DNA of 64,000 nucleotides from a virus. The first letter of the stretch is position 1; the number at the start of each line of letters is the position of its first letter. This document shows, piece by piece, positions 9,646 to 45,842 of the stretch. The notes below the pieces were generated by a model, which saw only the letters and a program-made list of their open reading frames with translations, was not told the origin of the DNA and ran no database searches. The stretch is from IMG/VR virus record IMGVR_UViG_3300002835_000025; one strand, given 5' to 3'. Both the position numbers and the translations under genes were made by a program.

Positions 9646-10632
9646 ATGATGATTAACGAATTTTATACAAATGCAATCCAATATGGTAATAAAATACTTG
9701 TCAGATCTATTAGAGATGGATTGCCACAAAAGCAGAAAATCGATTTTTACCCTACCTTATATACCACATCAGGAAAATCTTCAGAATCTTCTTCATTCAA
9801 GTCTTTACATGGAGTAGAATTATACGAAATAAAACCGGGTACCATAAATGATTGCAAAGATTTCATAAAAACTTACGAAAATGCGATGCCTGTGTATGGA
9901 CAAACAAACTATGCATATCAATATATTGAAGAAAATTACAAAACCGATATAAAGTTTGATTCTGACTTATTAAAAATCATTGCTATCGATATAGAAACTG
10001 CAAATGAAGAATCTGGTTTTCCTCATCCAAAATACGCTAATGAAGAAATTCTACTAATTACTGTCAGAGATCTTAAAACTAAATCTACAAAAATATTTGG
10101 ATCTAGACCTTATGAAGGAAAACATAAAGCAGATTTTGTCCTTTGTAAAGACGAAAATCAATTACTTCAGCAATTTGTGACTCATTGGCAACAAAGAATC
10201 CCTGACATTATTACGGGTTGGAATATTGACAACTTTGATATTCCGTACATTATTAATAGACTACTAAGAACTATAGGAGAAGATTATGTTAAAAAACTTT
10301 CTCCATGGAATATAGTCAATGAACGTTCTAAAAAGGTTAATAACGTAGAACAACAGACTTATGAAATACTCGGTGTGTCATCTTTAGACTATATTGAACT
10401 CTATAAGAAATATTCTAAAAAAAACCAGGAGTCATACAGACTAGACCATATAGCATTTGTAGAACTTGGTGAAAGAAAACTGGATCATAGCCAATGGAAT
10501 ACTTTCAAGGAATTTTACTCTGGTGAATATGACACTCATAAAATTAGGCCAGAGTATGAAAATTCGGATACAAAGTCTTATAGAAGAACACAGATAAAAT
10601 TAGAGTTAATTAGACGCGGACTAACAGTTTAA
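9646..10632 (+). CDS. 43: DNA polymerase B gp43, N-terminal fragment (N domain plus most of the exonuclease domain)
   Basis: ExoI DIET, Exo[23 protein letters not shown]; stops before ExoIII and ends in a novel basic tail. Confidence 0.93.
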
Positions 10633-11470
10633 ATTGTTTACAGTTTGTGCCATGCCATCTATTATAATTAAGAGGATCAAAACTGCAGTTGCAATATTCA
10701 CAAAGTATTGATTCTTTCTTTTTCATAGGTGGCAATTCTATTTCAGATTTGAATACATTTAAAGAACTGTCAAATATTGTCCAAGTTTTAGAAACTAGTC
10801 TTGTATTTCCTAGTGTTAAATTATATATTTTCTGTGGGCTTATTTTTGTTAATTGATGAAATTCTGATATAGTCATATCAAATACATCTTTAGTTATTAC
10901 ATTTTTAAATTTGAAAATGTCTTTTTTAAACCAAGGTTTACTTTGCTTTGCAATTTTACCAAAATTAATATTTTTACATTCAATAGAACATAATTTCTGG
11001 CTAATATTATGTGTAATTATTTCTTTATTACATACGGAACAATTTATAGTGATATACTTTCTGTTCGATAGCGCTTTCAATGATCTATTCTGTTTAATTA
11101 TTTCTTTAGTACACGATCTAGAACAACAATTACTGCATCCGCTAAATTCTTTATAACAATATTTGCAAATTTTCATTGGCTTAAGTTTTTTAACTCCAGT
11201 ATTTCCATCTCCGCCATCAGTCTTATTTAGGAGTATACCTGTCCCAATGTCTTTTCGCCCATGCCATCTTATCATTCTTCTTTCTATTGCTAATGCTCCA
11301 ACTTCAGATAAATTCGTTTCTAGGAATATTATCTTTGTTCTATCCTTTGGCACAGATATTCCTTTATGAATATCATAGGCTCTAGTATTCTTACCTTTTC
11401 CAATGTAATATGGTGTTCCGTCTGACTTTCTAATATATGCATACACGTAATATATAAGATCGCTGGTCAT
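10610..11470 (-). CDS. Free-standing GIY-YIG homing endonuclease with Cys-rich Zn modules
   Basis: [25 protein letters not shown], CxxC repeats, C-terminal RWHGTNCK; minus-strand TATAAATA at 11554-11561. Confidence 0.88.
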
Positions 11471-11620
11471 GATAGTTCCTTGAATTGTCTTAAGAATGAT
11501 TAGTGCTACTGGAGCCTAGGAACTCGCGAGTAGCTTTTTTAGTTTGTACAATCTATTTATAATATCAATAGATGTTTACTTTTTGTTGTTATTGTGATAT
11601 TATATACATTTATTATAGGA
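11462..11620. promoter_or_regulatory. Conserved endonuclease leader plus back-to-back late (-) and early (+) promoters, copy 1
   Basis: About 100-bp similarity to 54838-54990, with a covarying stem GCTACT/AGTAGC. Confidence 0.75.
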
Positions 11621-11627
11621 GAACATT

Positions 11628-13307
11628 ATGTTTAGTGATATATCAGATAAAGATTTATTAGATGAATATTATAAATTAGATAAAGAAATAAAGCAAGAAT
11701 CATGGACTACATATACTGATTACAATTATCATGACGTATTGCTTATTGATAAATTGGATGAGCAATTAAAGTTTATCGAGTTACAACTCACAATGGCATA
11801 TACTGCCAAGATTAATTATCAAGAAGCATTTAGTCCGGTTAGACTATGGGACTCTACAATCTATCACTATCTTATTAATAAGAACATTATTATTCCTAAC
11901 ATGGACAGAAATGTTAAAGGAGAATTAATGGGTGCCTATGTAAAGACTCCTATTACTGGCATTCATAAATGGATCGCGTCATTCGATTTGGCATCATTAT
12001 ATCCTCATCTAATAATGCAATACAATATCAGCCCAGAAACATTAACAACTACGAAATTGTCATTCACTATTGATAATTTATTAGACAAAATTGAACTTCC
12101 AAAAGTTGATTATGCAATTACTGCTAATGGTTGGTGCTATTCTAAAGATAAGCGCGGATTCCTACCAGAGTTGATGGACACTATGTATGCAAATCGTTCT
12201 ATGCATAAGAAACAAATGTTAAAGCATGAACAGCAATACGAGAGTGATAAGAACAATAAGGAACTATCAAAAGAAATTTCAAGACTTAATAACTTGCAAC
12301 TAGCTCTAAAGGAAACACTAAACAGTGCATACGGAGCTATTGGAATGCCATACTTCCGATATTATGATTTGAGAATGGCAGAATCCATAACATCATCTGG
12401 ACAGTTCTCGATAAAATGGATAGCAAACAGAATTAACAAATATTTGAATTCAGCTTTGAAAACAAATAACACCGATTATATTATTGCTTCGGATACCGAT
12501 TCTGTGTACGTGTCATTGGAAACTTTGGTCGAAACGACTCAAGGTGAAAAATCGACAGAAGATAAAATCAAATTCATGGATTCATTCTGCGGCAAAGTCT
12601 TAACTCCGTTAATAGAAAAATCATATATCGAGTTAGCAGAGTACATGAATGCCTATGAACAAAAGATGCAAATGAAACGAGAAGTACTTGCTGATAAAGG
12701 TTTGTGGACGGCTAAGAAAAGATATGCATTAAGAGTTCATAACTCTGAAGGTGTTCAGTATGATAAACCAAAAATGAAAATTATGGGCATTGAGATTGTA
12801 AAGTCATCGACTCCAACTGCCATAAGAGAAAAATTGAAGTCAACTATTGATATTATTTTTAATGACACTAATTTGGACCTCATAAGATTCATTGAAGACA
12901 CTAGACAGGAATTTAAAACATTAGCAGTAGAAGATATTGCTATTCCAAGTACAGTTAATGGAATGATAAAATTTTCTAATGACAAAACTATTTATTCTAA
13001 AGGCTGTCCGATTTATGTCAGAGGAGGTTTATTATACAATAAAGTTGTTAAAGATATGAAACTTGATCAGAAGTATCCTTTAATAGGCGCAGGAGACAAA
13101 TTAAAATATGTTTATTTGAAACTCCCAAATACTATTAAAGAAGATGTTATTGGATTCCCTACTGAATTACCAATGGAATTCGGATTACATAAGTATATTG
13201 ACTACAACACTCAGTTTGAAAAAGTGTTCTTGAATCCATTAGAAAAGATTGTCGATGCTATTGGTTGGAATTTAAAAGAGCAATCGACTTTAGATGCATT
13301 CTTCTAA
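11628..13307 (+). CDS. 43: DNA polymerase B gp43, C-terminal fragment (ExoIII plus polymerase domains)
   Basis: YNYHD (ExoIII), FDLASLYP, K..LNSAYG, SDTDS, KKRYAL, C-terminal clamp-binding TLDAFF; own promoter and AGGAG RBS. Confidence 0.95.
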   Translation: MFSDISDKDLLDEYYKLDKEIKQESWTTYTDYNYHDVLLIDKLDEQLKFIELQLTMAYTAKINYQEAFSPVRLWDSTIYHYLINKNIIIPNMDRNVKGELMGAYVKTPITGIHKWIASFDLASLYPHLIMQYNISPETLTTTKLSFTIDNLLDKIELPKVDYAITANGWCYSKDKRGFLPELMDTMYANRSMHKKQMLKHEQQYESDKNNKELSKEISRLNNLQLALKETLNSAYGAIGMPYFRYYDLRMAESITSSGQFSIKWIANRINKYLNSALKTNNTDYIIASDTDSVYVSLETLVETTQGEKSTEDKIKFMDSFCGKVLTPLIEKSYIELAEYMNAYEQKMQMKREVLADKGLWTAKKRYALRVHNSEGVQYDKPKMKIMGIEIVKSSTPTAIREKLKSTIDIIFNDTNLDLIRFIEDTRQEFKTLAVEDIAIPSTVNGMIKFSNDKTIYSKGCPIYVRGGLLYNKVVKDMKLDQKYPLIGAGDKLKYVYLKLPNTIKEDVIGFPTELPMEFGLHKYIDYNTQFEKVFLNPLEKIVDAIGWNLKEQSTLDAFF

Positions 13308-25233: not shown

Positions 25234-25368
25234 ATTATTCCCTAAAATAATTCAACAGTTATCACTTTATAGGTGATGCTGTGTCACGAGTAAAATTTGC
25301 TAAATAGTGTGTACAAATATCAAAAATATGATATAATATAATCTTTATTCTACTACAAAAGGTGATCT

Positions 25369-26475
25369 ATGAAATTAGCAGTATTGAAATTAGGCGCAAG
25401 AATTGTTTTTGGCCAAAAGGTTGGATCAAGCGGAGGATCAGGTGAAGCTGCTTCTTTAATAGAAATGATGGTTGAAGGTGGATGTGAAGTTGACTGTTAT
25501 ACTAAGGTATTGTCTTCAGATCAACAAAACAGATCAGTCAACGTGCTTAATATTGAAGACCATTATGAGAATATTACCAGTAATGTATACGATGCATTAG
25601 TAGTCATTAATGGCGCTGTTAATTTCTTTGGTGGCCAAGAAGACAGACCACAGATTCTTAATTATAAAGCAATAAACAACTTTAATGGAAAAATCATTTA
25701 CTTGTACTGTGACCCGAATTTATCTCTAAAACAAATTTGGCCTTCTATTGAGAAGAAACCCTGGGCTTCAAATTGGAATAAGGAAGATATTAATATTACA
25801 AAGCCTATTAATGTGATTTCGCAATCATACAATTTAGAAAAAAATAAAGCACTATTTGAGAAAAATGGATATCCTGTAGAATCTATTGTGCAATATGATT
25901 TCCAAAAATTCCCAATGATGAAACCAAGAGAAACTTCTATTCTAGGAAAGACTGTTGATTTGTCTTATGGAGGAACCTTTAGATCTGGTAGAAGAGAAAA
26001 GAAATTAATAGAATTCTATTTTGGACTCCCAGAAGATATTTCGGTAGAAGTATTCGGTAAAATTAAAATTACGGACTTTAATGAGAAAAAAGTAACCGGA
26101 TTACGTCCGCCAAAGTTTCTTCCTCCAGTCGATTATAATAATATGATTCAGAAAATGTCTTCTTCTAAAACCCATATTGCTATTGGTGATAATCAATACC
26201 CAGATTTTGAAATGATCTCTCAAAGAGTATATGAATCTATTATGGCGGGAACTTTATTATTCATTGATAATGAATTTGATAAGAATAAAAGAATTTTTGG
26301 AAACAATACTGAACTTTCCAATTTGCTATATATCAATGACAGAAATCAATTTGCAGATAGATTAAAATCATTGTCAGATTCTGATTACGAATCACTAATA
26401 GAACTTCAACATTCATGTGTAGATTTTAATAAATCAGAATATTGTTTAAACTTTGTAAAACTTTTGGAGGTATAA
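25369..26475 (+). CDS. bgt: DNA beta-glucosyltransferase homolog (GT-B, T4 BGT family)
   Basis: YDALVVINGAVNFFGG, YCDPNL, DLSYGGTFRSGRREKKLIEF, QRVYE, FIDNEFD match T4 BGT blocks. Confidence 0.88.
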   Translation: MKLAVLKLGARIVFGQKVGSSGGSGEAASLIEMMVEGGCEVDCYTKVLSSDQQNRSVNVLNIEDHYENITSNVYDALVVINGAVNFFGGQEDRPQILNYKAINNFNGKIIYLYCDPNLSLKQIWPSIEKKPWASNWNKEDINITKPINVISQSYNLEKNKALFEKNGYPVESIVQYDFQKFPMMKPRETSILGKTVDLSYGGTFRSGRREKKLIEFYFGLPEDISVEVFGKIKITDFNEKKVTGLRPPKFLPPVDYNNMIQKMSSSKTHIAIGDNQYPDFEMISQRVYESIMAGTLLFIDNEFDKNKRIFGNNTELSNLLYINDRNQFADRLKSLSDSDYESLIELQHSCVDFNKSEYCLNFVKLLEV

Positions 26476-26476
26476 T

Positions 26477-27289
26477 ATGGAACAAGAAAAAGACGTATTT
26501 GATGACAGTTCAGCAGTATTTTTTAAAAATGGATTCCTTGGTAAAATAAAATTTTCCAGTGCATGGCATATTGCATTCATTAGCAGATATACTTCAACAT
26601 GCACAGAAATTACCAAAATCAAAAGAAAAAATACTGAAGATTATGTTACTATATTAGATGTTGGGTGTGGTAATAAAACATTCTATCAATTTTGGTCTAA
26701 AAGTTTTGAAAGTTTATTGCGTCCCAGAGTGGATTACTTGGGTTTAGAATATGAACAATCTGTTGTAGATGAAGCAAATTCACCAACTGGAAGAGAATCT
26801 GTCAACAAATACAAAGTCATTCACTGTGATCTAAATACTACTTCATTTCATGACATTAAGCATCACGACAAATATGACGTAATTCTGTTGCAGGAAATTC
26901 TAGAACATATTCCAAAAGAAACTGCATTGAAACTTATAAAAGAAGCATCTGAATTGGTATCAGATAGAGGATTTATTGTCATATCATCTCCTAATCCAAA
27001 AAAGGACGAAGGTCAAGAATTTGTATGGCCAGAGAATCACATTCAAGAGTTTACTTTGGACGAAATGCATGATATGATAACCACTAATGGATTAAGTATC
27101 AGAAGAGTCAATGGGTGGTTAGGTAAAGCCAGATATTTTAAAAAGCATTTGAGTTCTAACAATATGGCTCTATATAACCAATTAAAAGGGATTTCGCAAG
27201 GATTCGCGGCAAGTACGATAGCATTTCTAAATCCAAAGATTGCAGAATGTTATATTTTTATTGCAGAAAAAAATAAGGGTATATTATGA
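26477..27289 (+). CDS. Class I SAM-dependent methyltransferase (small-molecule/sugar O-MTase type)
   Basis: ILDVGCG, YLGLE, YDVILLQEILEHI, ISSPN. Confidence 0.88.
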   Translation: MEQEKDVFDDSSAVFFKNGFLGKIKFSSAWHIAFISRYTSTCTEITKIKRKNTEDYVTILDVGCGNKTFYQFWSKSFESLLRPRVDYLGLEYEQSVVDEANSPTGRESVNKYKVIHCDLNTTSFHDIKHHDKYDVILLQEILEHIPKETALKLIKEASELVSDRGFIVISSPNPKKDEGQEFVWPENHIQEFTLDEMHDMITTNGLSIRRVNGWLGKARYFKKHLSSNNMALYNQLKGISQGFAASTIAFLNPKIAECYIFIAEKNKGIL

Positions 27290-28998
27290 AAATCGTAATA
27301 TTTTCAGGTGGCACTGGTTCAGTTCAATTACAGAAAGGTCTATATGAAACATTTGGTAAAGATGTATTAGACTATACGGTCATTACAAACTTAGCGGATA
27401 ACGGTCTTTCTACTGGAGAATGCAGAAAAGTTATGGATGGAAAAATTATGGGTCCGTCCGATTTAAGAAAGAATCAAATGCTAAGAGCAAAACTGGAAAA
27501 TAGTATATCAGAAAAATTGTATGAATTCCTAAATGACAGAATAACTATTTCTGCCGATGAAGTTCAATCGGTGCTTTTAGACAGAATCCATAAACTAGAC
27601 ATTGATATGTTTTATAGAGGTGTATTAGCTTCTGGAGTGAATCAATTCTTTGATAGCCAGTTATCATCACAGATAGATTATATTGACTTTTCAATTTCTA
27701 ATATCATTTATTCTGGAATAGCAAAGAAACATAACTATTCATTGGATTCTGCAGGAAAAGTATTTGAAGGAATATTAGACATTCCAGAGAATAGTGTAAT
27801 TTCTAATACTGATTCTCCGATGTATCTTATGGCTAAAACCCAATCTGGTTATATTATACATGACGAAGCTGATATAGTATCATGGAATAATCCTGATGAT
27901 AAAATCGTAGATTGTTTCTTTGTTGATAACCATAATAAGCCAGTAATTCCAGAATTATCAGAACTTTCGAAATCTGTAATATTATCAGCAGACATTATAA
28001 TTTTTTCATCCGGGACTCAATGGTCATCTCTTATTCCGACATATAAATCCATAGGATTCTCTGAAACTATATCAGAATCGAAAGCAAAGAAATATTTAAT
28101 TCTTAATGCTAGTCAAGATGCTGATATGAAAGGTGTATCTGGTGACGAATTGATTAATATTCTTATGGGTTATTTACCAAAAGATACTACTATCATTTCT
28201 GCTTTAGACGGTGACCCTTTATTAATTCCTGATTCGTATCAAAAAATCTCAGCTTTCTTACTTAATCAGGGTAAACACGACGGGAAGGCATTGGTAAAAA
28301 CTATTTTTGACCACTATTATAATTACCCAAAGATTAGTGACCAATACGTTTTCGATTATGATGATACTATTGTTGCTAGAGGCTCGCAGCACTCTAAAGT
28401 ATCTAAATCCAATGTCAAAAGAGTTCAAGAACTTTATAATAAGACTAATAATGTTTGGATATCTACTGGAAATACTATCAATGCTTTGCATGGAAATTTT
28501 TCTAATATTAAAGCATTAGCAGATGGTGGTGTTAATCTATACAAATTTAATAAAGAAGGAATTCCGCAATTCGAAAAATGCCTAGATAATGATTTACTTT
28601 TCTCTAAAAATGATATAGAATATATTACGGCAGATATTGTAGACTGTGGAATTGATATTACTAAAATCCAAATACGTGGAAAGGTAATGATTTCTATCAA
28701 ACCAATATCTCCTGAATACAGACATAGCATTAAATTATTATTAGAATCTAAACTAAGCAAATACGATCTATTAATTAGAATGTCTGGAAGAACAACGATT
28801 GACATTACAAAACCAAACTTGGATAAAATTTTAGCAACAGAAACTCTATTCGTTAATGATTTTACTTATATTGGTGATGAAGGTGAATCTGGCAATGACC
28901 ACCAAATATCACAATGTGGACATTGCAATTTTATACCAGTTAAAGATGTCAAAGATACTAACATGTACTTAGCAATTCTATTGGGAAAAGATGATTAA
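27286..28998 (+). CDS. CofD/YvcK-family transferase fused to a HAD-IIB phosphatase/mutase
   Basis: IVIFSGGTG, DNGLSTG, PSDLRK, ADIIIFSSGTQWSSLIP; then FDYDDT, ISTGN, TTIDI..K, YIGDEGESGND. Confidence 0.8.
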   Translation: MKIVIFSGGTGSVQLQKGLYETFGKDVLDYTVITNLADNGLSTGECRKVMDGKIMGPSDLRKNQMLRAKLENSISEKLYEFLNDRITISADEVQSVLLDRIHKLDIDMFYRGVLASGVNQFFDSQLSSQIDYIDFSISNIIYSGIAKKHNYSLDSAGKVFEGILDIPENSVISNTDSPMYLMAKTQSGYIIHDEADIVSWNNPDDKIVDCFFVDNHNKPVIPELSELSKSVILSADIIIFSSGTQWSSLIPTYKSIGFSETISESKAKKYLILNASQDADMKGVSGDELINILMGYLPKDTTIISALDGDPLLIPDSYQKISAFLLNQGKHDGKALVKTIFDHYYNYPKISDQYVFDYDDTIVARGSQHSKVSKSNVKRVQELYNKTNNVWISTGNTINALHGNFSNIKALADGGVNLYKFNKEGIPQFEKCLDNDLLFSKNDIEYITADIVDCGIDITKIQIRGKVMISIKPISPEYRHSIKLLLESKLSKYDLLIRMSGRTTIDITKPNLDKILATETLFVNDFTYIGDEGESGNDHQISQCGHCNFIPVKDVKDTNMYLAILLGKDD

Positions 28999-29743
28999 TT
29001 TAATTATTATAGCTGCTGGAAACGGCAAAAGAATGGGAAACATTAATGTTCCAAAAGTATTATATCCAGTAAATGGAGTTCCTAATTTAAAAAGAATTAT
29101 TACTAATGCTATAGAGTCCGAAGTATTTGACTCTATAGATTTAGTAATTAAAGATTCTGCAGTAAAAAGTTTTAAAGAATTTTTGGATAATAGTGAATTT
29201 GATATTAAAATAAATCTAATTCCTATAAATTCGGGACTAGGAGATGGACATGCAATTCTTTCCATGTATAAGAATGCTCATCAATATAACAATTCTATAT
29301 TGGTATGGGGCGATGTTTATATTGATAGTCCAATGATATTCAAAGAATTGAAAGATGTTGGAAGTTCTACTGGTAATAACTTTTCAAGCGCAGTAATTCC
29401 GGTATGTACTGAAAAGAATCCTTACGTTACTATATTGACTGATTCTAATATGAACGCATTATCAGCAGACTTCTCTAAACTTGGAGAAACTCATTTGGAA
29501 GGATTCCACGATCAGTCTATATTCTATATCAATAACGATGTAATATATGATAGTCTTCAAAAAATGCATGAAGTGTTATGGAAAAATGGACAATACATTA
29601 CTCAATCAAAAGAATTAAATTTCTTACATATTCTTCATTATTTAAGAAATATTAATTACCCAGCAAATTGTTATATTACTGAGTACCCAACAAAGTCGTT
29701 TAATAGTATTGAAGAATTGACAAAATTGGAAAATTCATTATGA
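28991..29743 (+). CDS. Nucleotidyltransferase (GT-A/NTP_transf family)
   Basis: IIIAAGNGKRMG...PKVL, GLGDGHA, LVWGD. Confidence 0.88.
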   Translation: MINLIIIAAGNGKRMGNINVPKVLYPVNGVPNLKRIITNAIESEVFDSIDLVIKDSAVKSFKEFLDNSEFDIKINLIPINSGLGDGHAILSMYKNAHQYNNSILVWGDVYIDSPMIFKELKDVGSSTGNNFSSAVIPVCTEKNPYVTILTDSNMNALSADFSKLGETHLEGFHDQSIFYINNDVIYDSLQKMHEVLWKNGQYITQSKELNFLHILHYLRNINYPANCYITEYPTKSFNSIEELTKLENSL

Positions 29744-30054
29744 TAAAAACCGATAAAAAATATATCCTATTGGGATCATCGAGACTTAGAAATTTTAAAC
29801 AAGTTAATGATTCTGCTTGGAGATTCTCTTGCAATTATTGTGGTGATTCTGTAAAGAATCCAAAGAAGACCCGCGGAAATATATACATGAAACACCACAA
29901 ATTTCTTTATAAGTGTTTTAACTGCGGAATTTCTAAATCTATTTCTGAATTCATTAAAGATTTGGATTCTAATTTGCATACAAAATATGAAATGGAAAAT
30001 TATAAAGAAGGATCCTCAATCTCACCAGATTTATCAATGTTCGGAGTAAAATGA
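29740..30054 (+). CDS. 61: Stand-alone zinc-binding domain of gp61 primase (truncated primase)
   Basis: FSCNYCGDS.KN.KKTRG..Y...YKCFNCG; stops after 104 aa with no TOPRIM domain. Confidence 0.75.
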   Translation: MIKTDKKYILLGSSRLRNFKQVNDSAWRFSCNYCGDSVKNPKKTRGNIYMKHHKFLYKCFNCGISKSISEFIKDLDSNLHTKYEMENYKEGSSISPDLSMFGVK

Positions 30055-30155: not shown

Positions 30156-31148
30156 ATGGCTATTAGAATCTTAAGCCCAAAGAGTGAATATATTACTGAT
30201 TATCCAACTGCTATAGAATTTTCAGAACAACAGGCATCAATAATTTGGTTTCCAGATGAAATAGAAGTAGAAAAGGATCTTCATGATCTGAAGACGAATT
30301 GCACAGAATCAGAGTATCACGGCGTAATATCAACACTGAAATTATTCACTCTATATGAATTAAATGTTGGTAATGATTACTGGCAAAATTATGTCAGTAA
30401 AGTCTTTCCTAGACCAGATATTCAAAGAATGGCCTCTACCTTCTCGTTTATGGAATTAGGAGTACACGCTCCATTCTATAATAAAATCAACGAAGTTCTT
30501 GGATTAGATAATGTTGACTTTTATAACTCTTACAAAGAAGATGAAGTACTAGCCAATAGAATGAATTGGATTGCAAAAAGAACTACTAAAAAAGATTCTG
30601 TGTACAATGTCCTAAAATCGGTTGGAGTGTTTTCAATGATTGAAGGAGCTATTCTTTATAGTTCATTTGCATTTCTTAAACATTTCAACTCGGCAGGAAA
30701 AAATAAACTCATCAATATAAATGCTGGAATAAATTTTTCAGCAATTGATGAAACCTTACACTCACAAGCAGGCGCATGGTTATTCAGAACATTAAAGTCA
30801 GAAGCTTTCGCCGATGAACAATTGACCTCTATTGAGTTAGTTGGCCTCAAAGAAGAATTGATAGAAACCGCAAGAGTTATTCTAGAGCACGAATCAATTA
30901 TTATTGATAAAATTTTTGAGAAGGGCCATATTAAGGGAATAACAAACACCCAATTAAAAAACTTTGTTGAATCTAGATTAGATATATGTCTAGAAAATCT
31001 TTCATATAGTGGAATATTTAAACCGTCTTATAACCCAATTAAAACCTGGTTCTATAAAGATATTGAAAGCTCAACTTTACATGACTTCTTTTCAAGTCAA
31101 GGTAATGATTATAGTCGCAATTGGTCAGAAGGAAAATTTCAATGGTAA
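30156..31148 (+). CDS. nrdB: Ribonucleotide reductase class I beta subunit
   Basis: WFPDE, E..H...Y, EGAILYSSF, DETLH, DFF. Confidence 0.95.
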   Translation: MAIRILSPKSEYITDYPTAIEFSEQQASIIWFPDEIEVEKDLHDLKTNCTESEYHGVISTLKLFTLYELNVGNDYWQNYVSKVFPRPDIQRMASTFSFMELGVHAPFYNKINEVLGLDNVDFYNSYKEDEVLANRMNWIAKRTTKKDSVYNVLKSVGVFSMIEGAILYSSFAFLKHFNSAGKNKLININAGINFSAIDETLHSQAGAWLFRTLKSEAFADEQLTSIELVGLKEELIETARVILEHESIIIDKIFEKGHIKGITNTQLKNFVESRLDICLENLSYSGIFKPSYNPIKTWFYKDIESSTLHDFFSSQGNDYSRNWSEGKFQW

Positions 31149-32848
31149 GAGAATTATCAATCTATGAAGAATTAGGTGAAGAACGTAAACTACTACAAGA
31201 GAATGGTTCTCTTCCCCATTGGTGCACTACTGCCGCATGGCAAATGCTAAAAGAAAATTATCTTTCAAACAAATATACTGATTTGAAGTCTGTATATTCT
31301 AGAATAGCAAAACACGCGGCAACATATACTAATGATCCAGCAACATGGGAATTAAAGTTCTTTGACTTATTATGGAATGGTTGGTTAGCAGCATCAACAC
31401 CAGTGTTATCTAATATGGGAACTGGTATTGGATGTCCTGTATCATGCTCAGGCGGATTCATTAGTGATTCTGTCTATTCATTTTATGAATCACAAAAGGA
31501 AGCTGCGGTATTATCAAAAAATGGATTTGGAACTTCTGGTTATTTAGGTGACATCAGACCAAGAGGATCTAAAATATCTGGAATAAAAGGAAGTTCGTCT
31601 GGAGTTCTTCCAGTATTCAAAGACTTTGTTCAAATGTCAAGAGACATTAGCCAAGGAAGTCAACGACGCGGAGCTTGGGCAGGTTATATAGAAATTGACC
31701 ATCCAGATTTCCATGAACTAGTCAATTATATTAACAAACAACCAGATGATGCAAATATTGGTTGGAATATTAGTAATGACTTTATTAAAAGATTAGATGC
31801 CGGAGATAAAGATGCTATTGAAAGATATCAAAAGGCATTGAAATTAAAAATGATTACAGGAAAAGGTTATTTTGAATTCATTGATAAAGTTAACGAACAA
31901 AATCCTGCAATGTATAAAGATTTGGGCCTTACAGTAAAAGCTTCCAATCTCTGTTCGGAAATACAATTATTCTCAGATGACGAACATACTTTTAGTTGCG
32001 TATTATCATCAATGAATGCATCACTTTTTGATGAATGGAAAAATACAACAGCAGTATTTGATGCCACAGTTTTCCTTGACTGTGTTAACCAAGATCTAAT
32101 AGAGATTGGAAAGAACACTCGTGGAATGGAAAAGGTTGTTAGATTTGCAGAGAAAAGCAGAGCACTTGGATTAGGTTTATTAGGATTCCATACGTATCTT
32201 CAAGATAATAATATTGCTTTTGAATCGTTTGAAGCCCAATTAAAGAATACTGAAATCTTTAAACATATCAATGAAGAATCATTAAAAGCTTCTCAATGGA
32301 TGGCATCACAATTTGGCGAACCTGAATGGTGCAAAGGTTATGGAGTTAGAAACACTCATAGAATTGCTGTTGCGCCAAATCTCAGTTCCGCTTTAATCTG
32401 TGGTTCTGTTAGTCAAGGCATAGAGCCAATTTATAAAAATGCATATGTTCAAAATACGGCAGCAGGAAAGATTGACCGAGTTAATCCAACACTATTAAAG
32501 TTAATGAAAGAACGTGGTGTCTATTCTGATGATACTGTAAAGGATATTATCAACAAGAAAGGTTCGGTACAACATGTTGAATGGTTAGATGACCATGAGA
32601 AACTAGTATTTAAGACTGCATTTGAAATTGACCAAATGCATATTATTAGATTAGCATCAAGCCGTCAGAGATATATAGATCAAGCGCAAAGCATTAATTT
32701 ATTTTTTAGCTCAGATGAGACTGAACAGTATATTAGTGAAGTACATAAAATGGCTTTCAAAGATCCCTATATTAAGAGTCTTTATTATATTAGATCTGAA
32801 AGCGGAGTTCAAACTAATAAAGGCGAATGTGTAGCCTGTCACGGATAA
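31142..32848 (+). CDS. nrdA: Ribonucleotide reductase class I alpha subunit
   Basis: STPVLSN, PVSC, SNLCSEI, APN, QGIEP, SLYY, C-terminal CVAC. Confidence 0.96.
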   Translation: MVRELSIYEELGEERKLLQENGSLPHWCTTAAWQMLKENYLSNKYTDLKSVYSRIAKHAATYTNDPATWELKFFDLLWNGWLAASTPVLSNMGTGIGCPVSCSGGFISDSVYSFYESQKEAAVLSKNGFGTSGYLGDIRPRGSKISGIKGSSSGVLPVFKDFVQMSRDISQGSQRRGAWAGYIEIDHPDFHELVNYINKQPDDANIGWNISNDFIKRLDAGDKDAIERYQKALKLKMITGKGYFEFIDKVNEQNPAMYKDLGLTVKASNLCSEIQLFSDDEHTFSCVLSSMNASLFDEWKNTTAVFDATVFLDCVNQDLIEIGKNTRGMEKVVRFAEKSRALGLGLLGFHTYLQDNNIAFESFEAQLKNTEIFKHINEESLKASQWMASQFGEPEWCKGYGVRNTHRIAVAPNLSSALICGSVSQGIEPIYKNAYVQNTAAGKIDRVNPTLLKLMKERGVYSDDTVKDIINKKGSVQHVEWLDDHEKLVFKTAFEIDQMHIIRLASSRQRYIDQAQSINLFFSSDETEQYISEVHKMAFKDPYIKSLYYIRSESGVQTNKGECVACHG

Positions 32849-42734: not shown

Positions 42735-42785
42735 TGTTTACAAATGTGGCATTTTGAATTATAATTAATTTTTTTGGAGTTTAAT

Positions 42786-43190
42786 ATGAGTACAAATTTT
42801 GTAAAAGATATTTCTGACATGCACACCAAGTTTGGTGTTAACACTACAGTTAATAAGTTTGATAAAGAAAGATTAACAGCATTTCTGGATTTTAGAATTG
42901 GGTGTTTGCAGGAAGAATTAGATGAACTTAAACATGCTGAAAATGCTGATGATGCGGTAGATGCCTTAATAGATCTAATAGTATTCGCAGTAGGTACCTT
43001 AGATGTGTACCAGGTTGACTCTGTTAAAGCCTGGCAAAGAGTGTATGATGCTAATATTGTTAAAGAAGTAGGAATTAAGGAAGGTAGACCCAATCCTTTT
43101 GGATTACCCGATCTAATTAAACCAGAAGGTTGGGTTGCTCCATCACATGTAGATAATGTTGGTTTATTAGATATAGTGTTTGCGGATTGA
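42786..43190 (+). CDS. MazG/PRA-PH-like nucleotide pyrophosphatase (candidate dCTPase/dUTPase)
   Basis: EELDEL...DALIDL...V.DAN..K...KPEGW. Confidence 0.85.
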   Translation: MSTNFVKDISDMHTKFGVNTTVNKFDKERLTAFLDFRIGCLQEELDELKHAENADDAVDALIDLIVFAVGTLDVYQVDSVKAWQRVYDANIVKEVGIKEGRPNPFGLPDLIKPEGWVAPSHVDNVGLLDIVFAD

Positions 43191-44221: not shown

Positions 44222-44764
44222 ATGATTAGAAAAATAGCATTAATGCTAAAAGATGCTGGAACAGTTGAGATTGACAAAGATACTATTCATAATGATGTAC
44301 ATTTAATGGCTTCTAGTATTTTTGAAAAACCTTTCATGAGAAAGGAAAGATCATTTGAACAAGTGTATGAACACTGCGCGTATACTGCTATCGAGTATGC
44401 TCTTGCTAATGTTATTGACGGACAACGCAATCCTTTAAAATTCGATAAGACTAATCCTGAGTCTTACAAATATGATGTTATTAAGGACGATTTGAAATTT
44501 GAAGTAAAGAAACATGCTTTTAACAATTCCTATTTTACATATCAAAAGTCTAATATTAATACATTTCTTAAGCACTGTCAAACATTAGACTATTTGGTAA
44601 CTGCTACAATGGCAACTAATGTTGATTCTTACTTAATAGATTTTTACATGATTATTAATGCAAAGAAATTCTCAGATAATTTCAAGCAATCAAAATTTAA
44701 TGAAGGATGGTATTATGACCATCGATTCAATAATGACAATATTATTATTAAAACCCTGGAGTGA
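44222..44764 (+). CDS. Putative PD-(D/E)XK endonuclease
   Basis: IEYAL helix, YD-x8-EVK motif; own early promoter. Confidence 0.5.
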   Translation: MIRKIALMLKDAGTVEIDKDTIHNDVHLMASSIFEKPFMRKERSFEQVYEHCAYTAIEYALANVIDGQRNPLKFDKTNPESYKYDVIKDDLKFEVKKHAFNNSYFTYQKSNINTFLKHCQTLDYLVTATMATNVDSYLIDFYMIINAKKFSDNFKQSKFNEGWYYDHRFNNDNIIIKTLE

Positions 44765-45174
44765 ATATGACTGAAGCAAAACGTAAATCTGTTGAAGTAT
44801 TAGAAGAAGCAATTGCTCTTCAAATTAAGAAAGGTAATGATTACCAGAATTCTGCATCAAGAGTAAGACAGGCAGATTACTATCCTCACGGAATCAATAG
44901 TATTTTAGATACTATTAATGCTAAAGTCTTACGAATGTTTTCTGTTATTGAAACAATGGAAGCGGGTGGATCTGTCAATTTTGAATCAATCGAGGATTCT
45001 GCTATCGATGGAATCAATTACTTATCATTCTTAGTTTCATACATGAGAGGTGAAATCGATGGTCAACAACCTGATAGAGATATTTTCAATAAGACGGGTC
45101 AACAAAATCGTGCCTTAATTCCTACTAAATTCAGAACACAAACTGGCGGCAATATTATTGGAGTAAACAAATAA
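44761..45174 (+). CDS. Nucleotide-modification-associated all-helical protein (DUF1599/Nmad1-like)
   Basis: KKGNDYQ...K.LR...ESIEDSAIDGINY; directly upstream of the dCMP hydroxymethylase. Confidence 0.7.
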   Translation: MNMTEAKRKSVEVLEEAIALQIKKGNDYQNSASRVRQADYYPHGINSILDTINAKVLRMFSVIETMEAGGSVNFESIEDSAIDGINYLSFLVSYMRGEIDGQQPDRDIFNKTGQQNRALIPTKFRTQTGGNIIGVNK

Positions 45175-45842
45175 TGGAACAATACTCTGTAAAAGATATT
45201 AGAAATGAATTTAAGTCACTATTGGAAAATGACGAATTTGTAATAGACAAGACCGGTTGCAAAATGGTTGAAATTGCCGGAACATCATTTATTGCTAGTG
45301 AACCTACTATCTTTGGAACTCTTAATGAAGACTATGCTAAAAGAGAAATAGAATGGTACAAATCCATGTCTCTTAACGTTAATGACATTCCAGGTGAAAC
45401 TCCAGCAGTGTGGAAACAGGTTGCTGATGCAAATGGAATGATCAATTCTAATTATGGTTGGTGTGTTTATTCAAGAGAAAACCATTATCAATTCCAGAAC
45501 GTACTTCAAGAATTAGTAAGAAATAGATTCTCTAGAAGAGCAATAATGATTTATACCCGGCCTTCTATTTGGGCCGAATTTGAAACCGTGGGAATGTCTG
45601 ATTTTATTTGCACCAATACAGTTCAATATCTTATTAGAAATAATAAACTTCACGCATTTGTACAAATGCGGTCAAATGATGCAATTTTTGGATATAAAAA
45701 TGACTTATATTGGCAACAGCACGTCCATACTGAATTGCATGAATGTCTTAATGAGAGTGGAGTACAATGCGAAATCGGTGATATTATCTGGAATGCAACA
45801 TCGCTTCATGTTTATGAAAAACATTTCCATTTGATAAAATAA
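45174..45842 (+). CDS. 42: dCMP hydroxymethylase gp42
   Basis: DKTG.K..EI.G.SF.A, DIPGETP, INSNYGW, RRAIMIYTRPS, MSDFICTNTVQY, MRSND..FG.KND, SLHVY.KHF. Confidence 0.93.
   Translation: MEQYSVKDIRNEFKSLLENDEFVIDKTGCKMVEIAGTSFIASEPTIFGTLNEDYAKREIEWYKSMSLNVNDIPGETPAVWKQVADANGMINSNYGWCVYSRENHYQFQNVLQELVRNRFSRRAIMIYTRPSIWAEFETVGMSDFICTNTVQYLIRNNKLHAFVQMRSNDAIFGYKNDLYWQQHVHTELHECLNESGVQCEIGDIIWNATSLHVYEKHFHLIK

Follow-up and report, generated by a model that had tools for sequence, protein, structure and literature searches.

A phage gene cassette predicted to supply a non-host sugar for glycosylation of 5-hydroxymethylcytosine

Why would a phage with a T4-type 5-hydroxymethylcytosine (hmC) synthase and β-glucosyltransferase (BGT) also carry apparent donor-making genes and a methyltransferase, when T4 has neither? 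The question is raised by IMG/VR virus record IMGVR_UViG_3300002835_000025, a 64,000-nucleotide stretch of DNA (hereafter, the window). Four of its open reading frames, each abutting or overlapping the next, encode a BGT homolog of glycosyltransferase family GT63 (368 aa), a class I S-adenosylmethionine (SAM) methyltransferase (270 aa), a fusion of YvcK-like and HAD-IIB domains (570 aa), and a nucleotidyltransferase (NT; 250 aa). The answer favored here, with a probability of about 0.72, is that the phage makes a UDP-sugar foreign to its host and transfers it to hmC.

Acceptor synthase and transferase both have counterparts in T4. The window synthase is a gp42 ortholog (E 1e-78 to 1B49) with equivalents of E60, C148, D169, and D179, the last being the dCMP-specifying Asp that an earlier note on this sequence had reported. 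A 5-hydroxycytosine acceptor is ruled out: 5-hydroxy-dCMP synthases carry the signature D169N (PMC13326640), whereas D169 (RSND) is kept in the window synthase and in synthases linked to similar loci. The BGT homolog scores 105.7 bits against PF09198 (cut-off 27) and matches T4 BGT with an E value of 8e-44, at ~29% identity. Equivalents of T4 BGT residues E22, D100, R191, R195, D258, Y261, R269, and E272 are all present, so its identification as a BGT with preserved catalytic and UDP-binding residues holds. It differs from the T4 enzyme in a Gly-rich loop at residues 18–21: GGSGE replaces V18-P19-S20-S21-E22, a loop (18–22) that we take to contact the donor. At the position of V18, 45 of 46 cassette-linked BGTs have a small residue, as against 2 of 23 others.

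How widespread is this arrangement? The YvcK-HAD fusion is represented by at least 527 protein clusters overall. Around it, in 30 non-redundant IMG/VR loci, an NT gene lies within ~10 kb in all 30, BGT in 24, and a gp42-like (dCMP-type) synthase in 17; large records with no synthase nearby encode a gp42-like gene elsewhere (3/3). (A count of 32/53 comes from a BGT profile built from cassette-linked members, and is biased upward.) Both diagnostic positions are Asp in every cassette-linked synthase. In many phages the order BGT, YvcK-HAD, NT is syntenic with dCMP-type synthases, dNMP kinases, and dCMP deaminases. The linkage to gp42 that the earlier note proposed to seek by synteny is thus found across phages, and the predicted association of the cassette with hmC is well supported. 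Its four-gene unit fares less evenly: the conserved core is three genes (BGT, YvcK-HAD, and NT), and a conserved four-gene operon is ruled out because the methyltransferase is present in just 4 of the 30 loci.

One carrier has been isolated. In jumbo phage RsoM2USA the genes for BGT, the fusion, and NT are consecutive and span the genome origin; a dCMP-type synthase is encoded ~5 kb upstream of them, the methyltransferase is absent, and the paper on this phage does not mention DNA modification. The literature, with subscription papers mostly outside the coverage, holds no description of the gene combination, of RsoM2USA DNA modification, or of glucofuranosyl-hmC, in keeping with the original impression that the combination is uncharacterized. 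The module, conserved and predicted to glycosylate hmC from a donor of its own making, is real and apparently undescribed.

The company that the YvcK-HAD and NT pair keeps suggests its role. It is found also in capsule loci of gut Firmicutes, in three-gene GT2 operons of Clostridia, beside GT1 enzymes, and, in other phages, between TET-associated glycosyltransferases (TAGT). Transferases of differing folds and acceptors have the pair as a companion, a pattern that best fits the supply of a donor. Its most likely function is accordingly to make a donor, not to modify DNA itself.

A natural exchange of cassettes bears on the same point. One BGT lineage nests among the cassette-bearing BGTs in a quick version of the tree, and the cassette is present in none of its five records, two of which are 94–98% complete. 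These phages encode a SIS isomerase and an NT-kinase fusion, resembling the RB69/DLP3 UDP-arabinofuranose pathway, with homologs in the arabinose cluster of phages of Acinetobacter and of the RB69-like group; the NT-kinase fusion is absent from six cassette-bearing records. Exchange for a furanose cassette and the altered BGT loop both fit a donor other than that of T4. Together with the unrelated transferases that the pair accompanies, they favor the earlier suggestion that the phage makes its own non-standard donor. Seven BGT-family phages with the RB69-type SIS isomerase and NT-kinase (L183, L184, L187, L188, L199, L203, and L211) are candidates for true arabinosyl-hmC phages; in six of them the synthase is in view, and D169 and D179 are kept (hmC type).

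The RB69/DLP3 pathway to arabinosyl-5-hydroxycytosine offers the nearest parallel (PMC13326640): there the phage makes a UDP-furanose via a HAD protein and a nucleotidyltransferase, as may happen here, and transfers it to DNA after replication. The differences are threefold: a SIS isomerase and kinase, both absent from the window operon, stand in place of the YvcK-like domain; the acceptor is 5-hydroxycytosine, made by a D169N synthase, whereas the window synthase keeps D169; and sugar transfer is ascribed to other GT-B enzymes (PMC13326640). The window module would work like RB69/DLP3, has T4-type gp42 and BGT, and belongs to neither pathway.

What, then, are the putative donor-making proteins? 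The predicted structure of the fusion (pLDDT 95) agrees with Pfam matches to CofD (residues 3–330) and HAD-IIB (355–548). The earlier label, a CofD/YvcK fold joined to HAD-IIB, is right about both domains, but the amino-terminal one is nearer YvcK/UPF0052 (Z 31, rmsd 2.1) than CofD/FbiA (Z 19–21; CofD ~20). It shares with YvcK/GlmR this fold and the motif D-D/N-G-x-S-T-G, and departs from it in several ways. The TIGR01826 score, 60.4 bits, is far below the cut-off of 196. The predicted YvcK/GlmR active-site triad D40, D41, and N198 is not matched: D38 is kept, and the other positions are N39 and T252, although Asn at the second site occurs in some true YvcK proteins too. The domain has invariant residues specific to its own family; it is fused to HAD; and in the loci read its family always adjoins a glycosyltransferase, one plasmid copy excepted. 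A stand-alone YvcK-like relative on an Acaryochloris plasmid (L251:6983–8080) has no annotated glycosyltransferase nearby, and among bacterial variants are L164, where a class I HAD accompanies the YvcK-like protein as a separate gene product, and L165, where YvcK and NT are fused.

The HAD domain retains intact motifs of the phosphomannomutase (PMM)/α-phosphoglucomutase type (DxD, T/S, K, and GDxxxGND, at D357, D359, T394, K514, and G530–D538) and conserved basic cap residues (R464, K472, and R479). By profile its nearest relatives are phosphomannomutases and a Lactococcus α-phosphoglucomutase; as between mutase and phosphatase, the profile favors PMM, whereas structure ties PMM with trehalose-6-phosphate phosphatase-like proteins. 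The NT has the expected GT-A fold, nearest in structure to the GlmU uridyltransferase domain (Z 26.7). It has no carboxyl-terminal acetyltransferase domain, has invariant residues of its own, and places Phe at the position of a GlmU Glu that is presumably sugar-binding. Neither the NT nor the YvcK-like domain is a standard member of its nearest family.

From the observed gene content, folds, conserved residues, co-occurrence, and cassette swap, we infer each activity and product in the following scheme. The gp42 ortholog would make hydroxymethyl-dCMP, and the replicated genome would contain hmC. From the fusion and NT would come a nucleotide sugar unavailable from the host. The PMM-like HAD would shift or remove phosphate to give a sugar-1-phosphate, which the NT would uridylylate; a single unusual reaction, most probably the conversion of pyranose to furanose or the trapping of a furanose, would fall to the YvcK-like domain, acting on either the sugar-1-phosphate or the UDP-sugar. 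The inverting BGT homolog would then place the sugar on hmC in β linkage. The HAD is missing in Mycoplasma fermentans, whose genome encodes a Pgm, and in one phage lineage no NT adjoins the fusion; since the YvcK-like domain alone is present throughout, the unique step is likely to be its own. Three orders can be envisaged. The HAD may yield glucose-1-phosphate, whose ring the YvcK-like domain contracts before a furanose-specific NT activates it; HAD and NT may produce UDP-glucose, on which the YvcK-like domain then acts as a UDP-sugar mutase; or, on the model of the arabinose pathway, the YvcK-like domain may phosphorylate a furanose anomer from which the HAD strips the distal phosphate.

Which sugar might it be? 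GT2 and GT63 enzymes are both inverting, so one α-linked donor would yield β products with either. M. fermentans PG18 makes a polymer shown by NMR to be unsubstituted β-1,6-glucofuranan, with a furanose C1 reported near 109 ppm; its synthase is encoded within a Clostridia-like island, together with an NT and a member of the CofD family, and no pathway to activated glucofuranose has been described (PMC11658790). This island comprises GT2 (clustering with BAH69904), YvcK-like, and NT genes. Three M. fermentans assemblies contain an intact 340-aa YvcK-like gene, with no HAD, alongside an NT of 232 aa; in one read-set contig the YvcK-like gene is split. The genome encodes Pgm and GalU and no Glf mutase. 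Identity to the window proteins is 33% (YvcK-like) and 29% (NT), within the same families and with nearly all core residues in common, and in a FastTree-only phylogeny the M. fermentans YvcK-like domain nests with BGT-linked phage enzymes. Island and window thus share both families' core residues and an inverting glycosyltransferase partner; they differ in that the island has no HAD domain, has a GT2 polymer synthase, and lies on a separate YvcK sub-branch, its pathway being proposed from genes.

Glucofuranose is, on this analogy, the leading candidate for the donor sugar, though a tentative one, and another non-host sugar is about as likely. The corresponding base would be 5-(β-D-glucofuranosyloxymethyl)cytosine, optionally O-methylated thereafter by the methyltransferase where present. 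The full proposal, in which this base arises by a flavin-free UDP-glucofuranose route through a YvcK-fold enzyme, is less likely than not.

Several points weigh against these interpretations. The nearest characterized relatives (GlmR, GlmU, and PMM) all act on ordinary sugars; the BGT loop correlation amounts to only two to four changes on the tree; and in one phage lineage (L102, L107, and L122) the fusion has no adjoining NT. The link between gene and polymer in M. fermentans is only genomic, and the CofD-family gene is reported as split in the PG18 record (PMC11658790). Moreover, the window YvcK domain falls on a different branch from that of M. fermentans and differs at the otherwise conserved positions S12/N, Q64/H, and Q245/F; its sugar may therefore differ.

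The first of these points leads to the best surviving alternative, that the cassette merely boosts an ordinary donor (UDP-glucopyranose, or UDP-N-acetylglucosamine (UDP-GlcNAc) via steps like those of GlmR, GlmU, and mutase), making the base β-glucosyl-hmC or GlcNAc-hmC. The closest structures, GlmU, PMM/α-phosphoglucomutase, and YvcK, agree with it, as does the uridyltransferase activity reported for GlmR (10.1101/2021.10.27.466214). Yet T4-like BGTs work without a cassette; M. fermentans, with Pgm and GalU, still keeps the YvcK-like and NT genes beside its glucofuranan synthase; GlmR N198 is replaced by Thr in a YvcK-like family with invariant residues of its own; and the furanose-cassette swap and BGT loop change suit a different donor. 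On balance this alternative is unlikely.

Less probable still is a scheme patterned on CofC and CofD of F420 synthesis, in which the NT would activate a phospho-substrate, the CofD-fold domain would attach it to glucosyl-hmC as a phosphodiester, and the HAD would trim phosphate. The resemblance is a remote fold similarity together with an NT partner. However, identity to CofD is 12–17%, the window NT is GlmU-like, and a DNA-recognition module is not obvious; CofD membership of the domain is ruled out by the closer match to YvcK and by the absence of F420 genes among annotated loci. The pair, moreover, accompanies transferases with unrelated acceptors (DNA, polysaccharide, and small molecules), and the sole characterized polymer tied to a relative is reported as unsubstituted (PMC11658790). 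The phosphodiester branch of the earlier note is accordingly not favored.

That the target of glycosylation is not DNA, but proteins of the virion or polymers on the host surface, is very improbable: the cassette does occur in bacterial capsule loci, and six viral loci have it without BGT (a ThyA-family search found no match in the five tested), but the window transferase is a GT63 enzyme with T4 catalytic residues, of a kind that recurs in clusters alongside nucleotide kinases and dCMP-type synthases. Among phages with a BGT-less cassette, a TET search gave no match, its positive control being likewise silent; in L036, L037, and L042, also without a ThyA match, TET-associated glycosyltransferases flank the cassette. 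Large phage records with a BGT-less cassette include L044 and L051, with a short-chain dehydrogenase neighbor, and L034, with a C5 DNA methylase neighbor.

The methyltransferase is an optional accessory outside the conserved core. It matches small-molecule class I profiles only, as the earlier note had it, and no DNA methyltransferase family (C5 or amino); no match was found in GenBank phages, and PDB matches are weak only. Five IMG/VR loci found for its family all have the cassette, on scattered BGT branches, and six further homologs divide into two with the cassette, three on contigs without it, and one on a contig too short. The suggested O-methyl group gains from this company, since the methyltransferase accompanies the cassette in most loci read, but loses from its being optional. 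The chance that it O-methylates the sugar in the window phage may be put at about even.

The operon lies behind a predicted promoter (Table 1) whose motif occurs 10 times in the window, always on the plus strand, against 0.16 expected; one of these copies precedes the gp42 operon. Tight coupling of four genes behind one repeated promoter is thereby confirmed in layout, with a fifth reading frame (104 aa, 29740–30054), absent from the earlier four-gene count, overlapping the NT stop codon. This one is primase zinc-ribbon-like, and is kept with the cassette only among close relatives. The MazG-type protein is 56% identical to a MazG family that recurs beside the cassette in other phages.

Table 1. 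Features of the window that bear on the proposed modification
Feature	Coordinates	Strand	Basis
Repeated phage promoter TGTACA-N16-TATAAT (putative)	25310..25337	+	Motif 5' of operon
T4 β-glucosyltransferase (GT63) homolog	25369..26475	+	PF09198, T4 similarity, residue alignment
Class I SAM methyltransferase, small-molecule type; optional accessory	26477..27289	+	Class I SAM Pfam profiles
YvcK/UPF0052-like domain (residues 1–345) and phosphomannomutase-like HAD-IIB (350–570)	27286..28998	+	Profiles, structure model
GlmU-N-domain-like sugar-1-phosphate nucleotidyltransferase, distinct family	28991..29743	+	Structure, residue comparison
MazG-type pyrophosphatase, candidate dCTPase	42774..43190	+	PF01503
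DenB-like endonuclease IV candidate, gp42 operon	44222..44764	+	PHROG 1360, E 1e-10 (weak)
gp42 dCMP hydroxymethylase ortholog, predicted to make the hmC acceptor	45174..45842	+	Similarity, diagnostic residues

The remaining window content is T4-like. Family B DNA polymerase is encoded in two genes (9646–13307), with a 286-aa reverse-strand reading frame (10610–11470) in between. The ribonucleotide reductase large subunit (31121–32848) is 575 aa and has no intein; near-identical relatives (L007:13857–16562) have an HNH intein within it (901 aa). In other phages, a slot adjacent to BGT contains varying genes (L017:8931–9734, L080:8350–8988, and L028:8876–9556; weakly PvuRts1I-like, uracil-DNA glycosylase (UDG)-like, and of unknown kind), which suggests an insertion hotspot. 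In L213, L216, and L219, genes for GT25 and GT10 (fucosyltransferase-like) enzymes follow that of a divergent BGT, which points to possible multi-sugar DNA modification.

If the base is glucofuranosyl-hmC, it would have the same mass as the T4 base and so would be missed by mass-only screens; phages scored by mass as "hexosyl-hmC" may conceal it. Its pathway would be the first described biosynthesis of a nucleotide-activated glucofuranose. The module offers a way into two questions: by what route glucofuranose becomes activated, and which chemistry proteins of the YvcK fold carry out. A BGT that accepts other donors could also widen the tools for 5hmC labeling. For the phages themselves, the cassette leads us to expect, in a large and diverse set, a cytosine hypermodification not yet described, with RsoM2USA as an isolated carrier.

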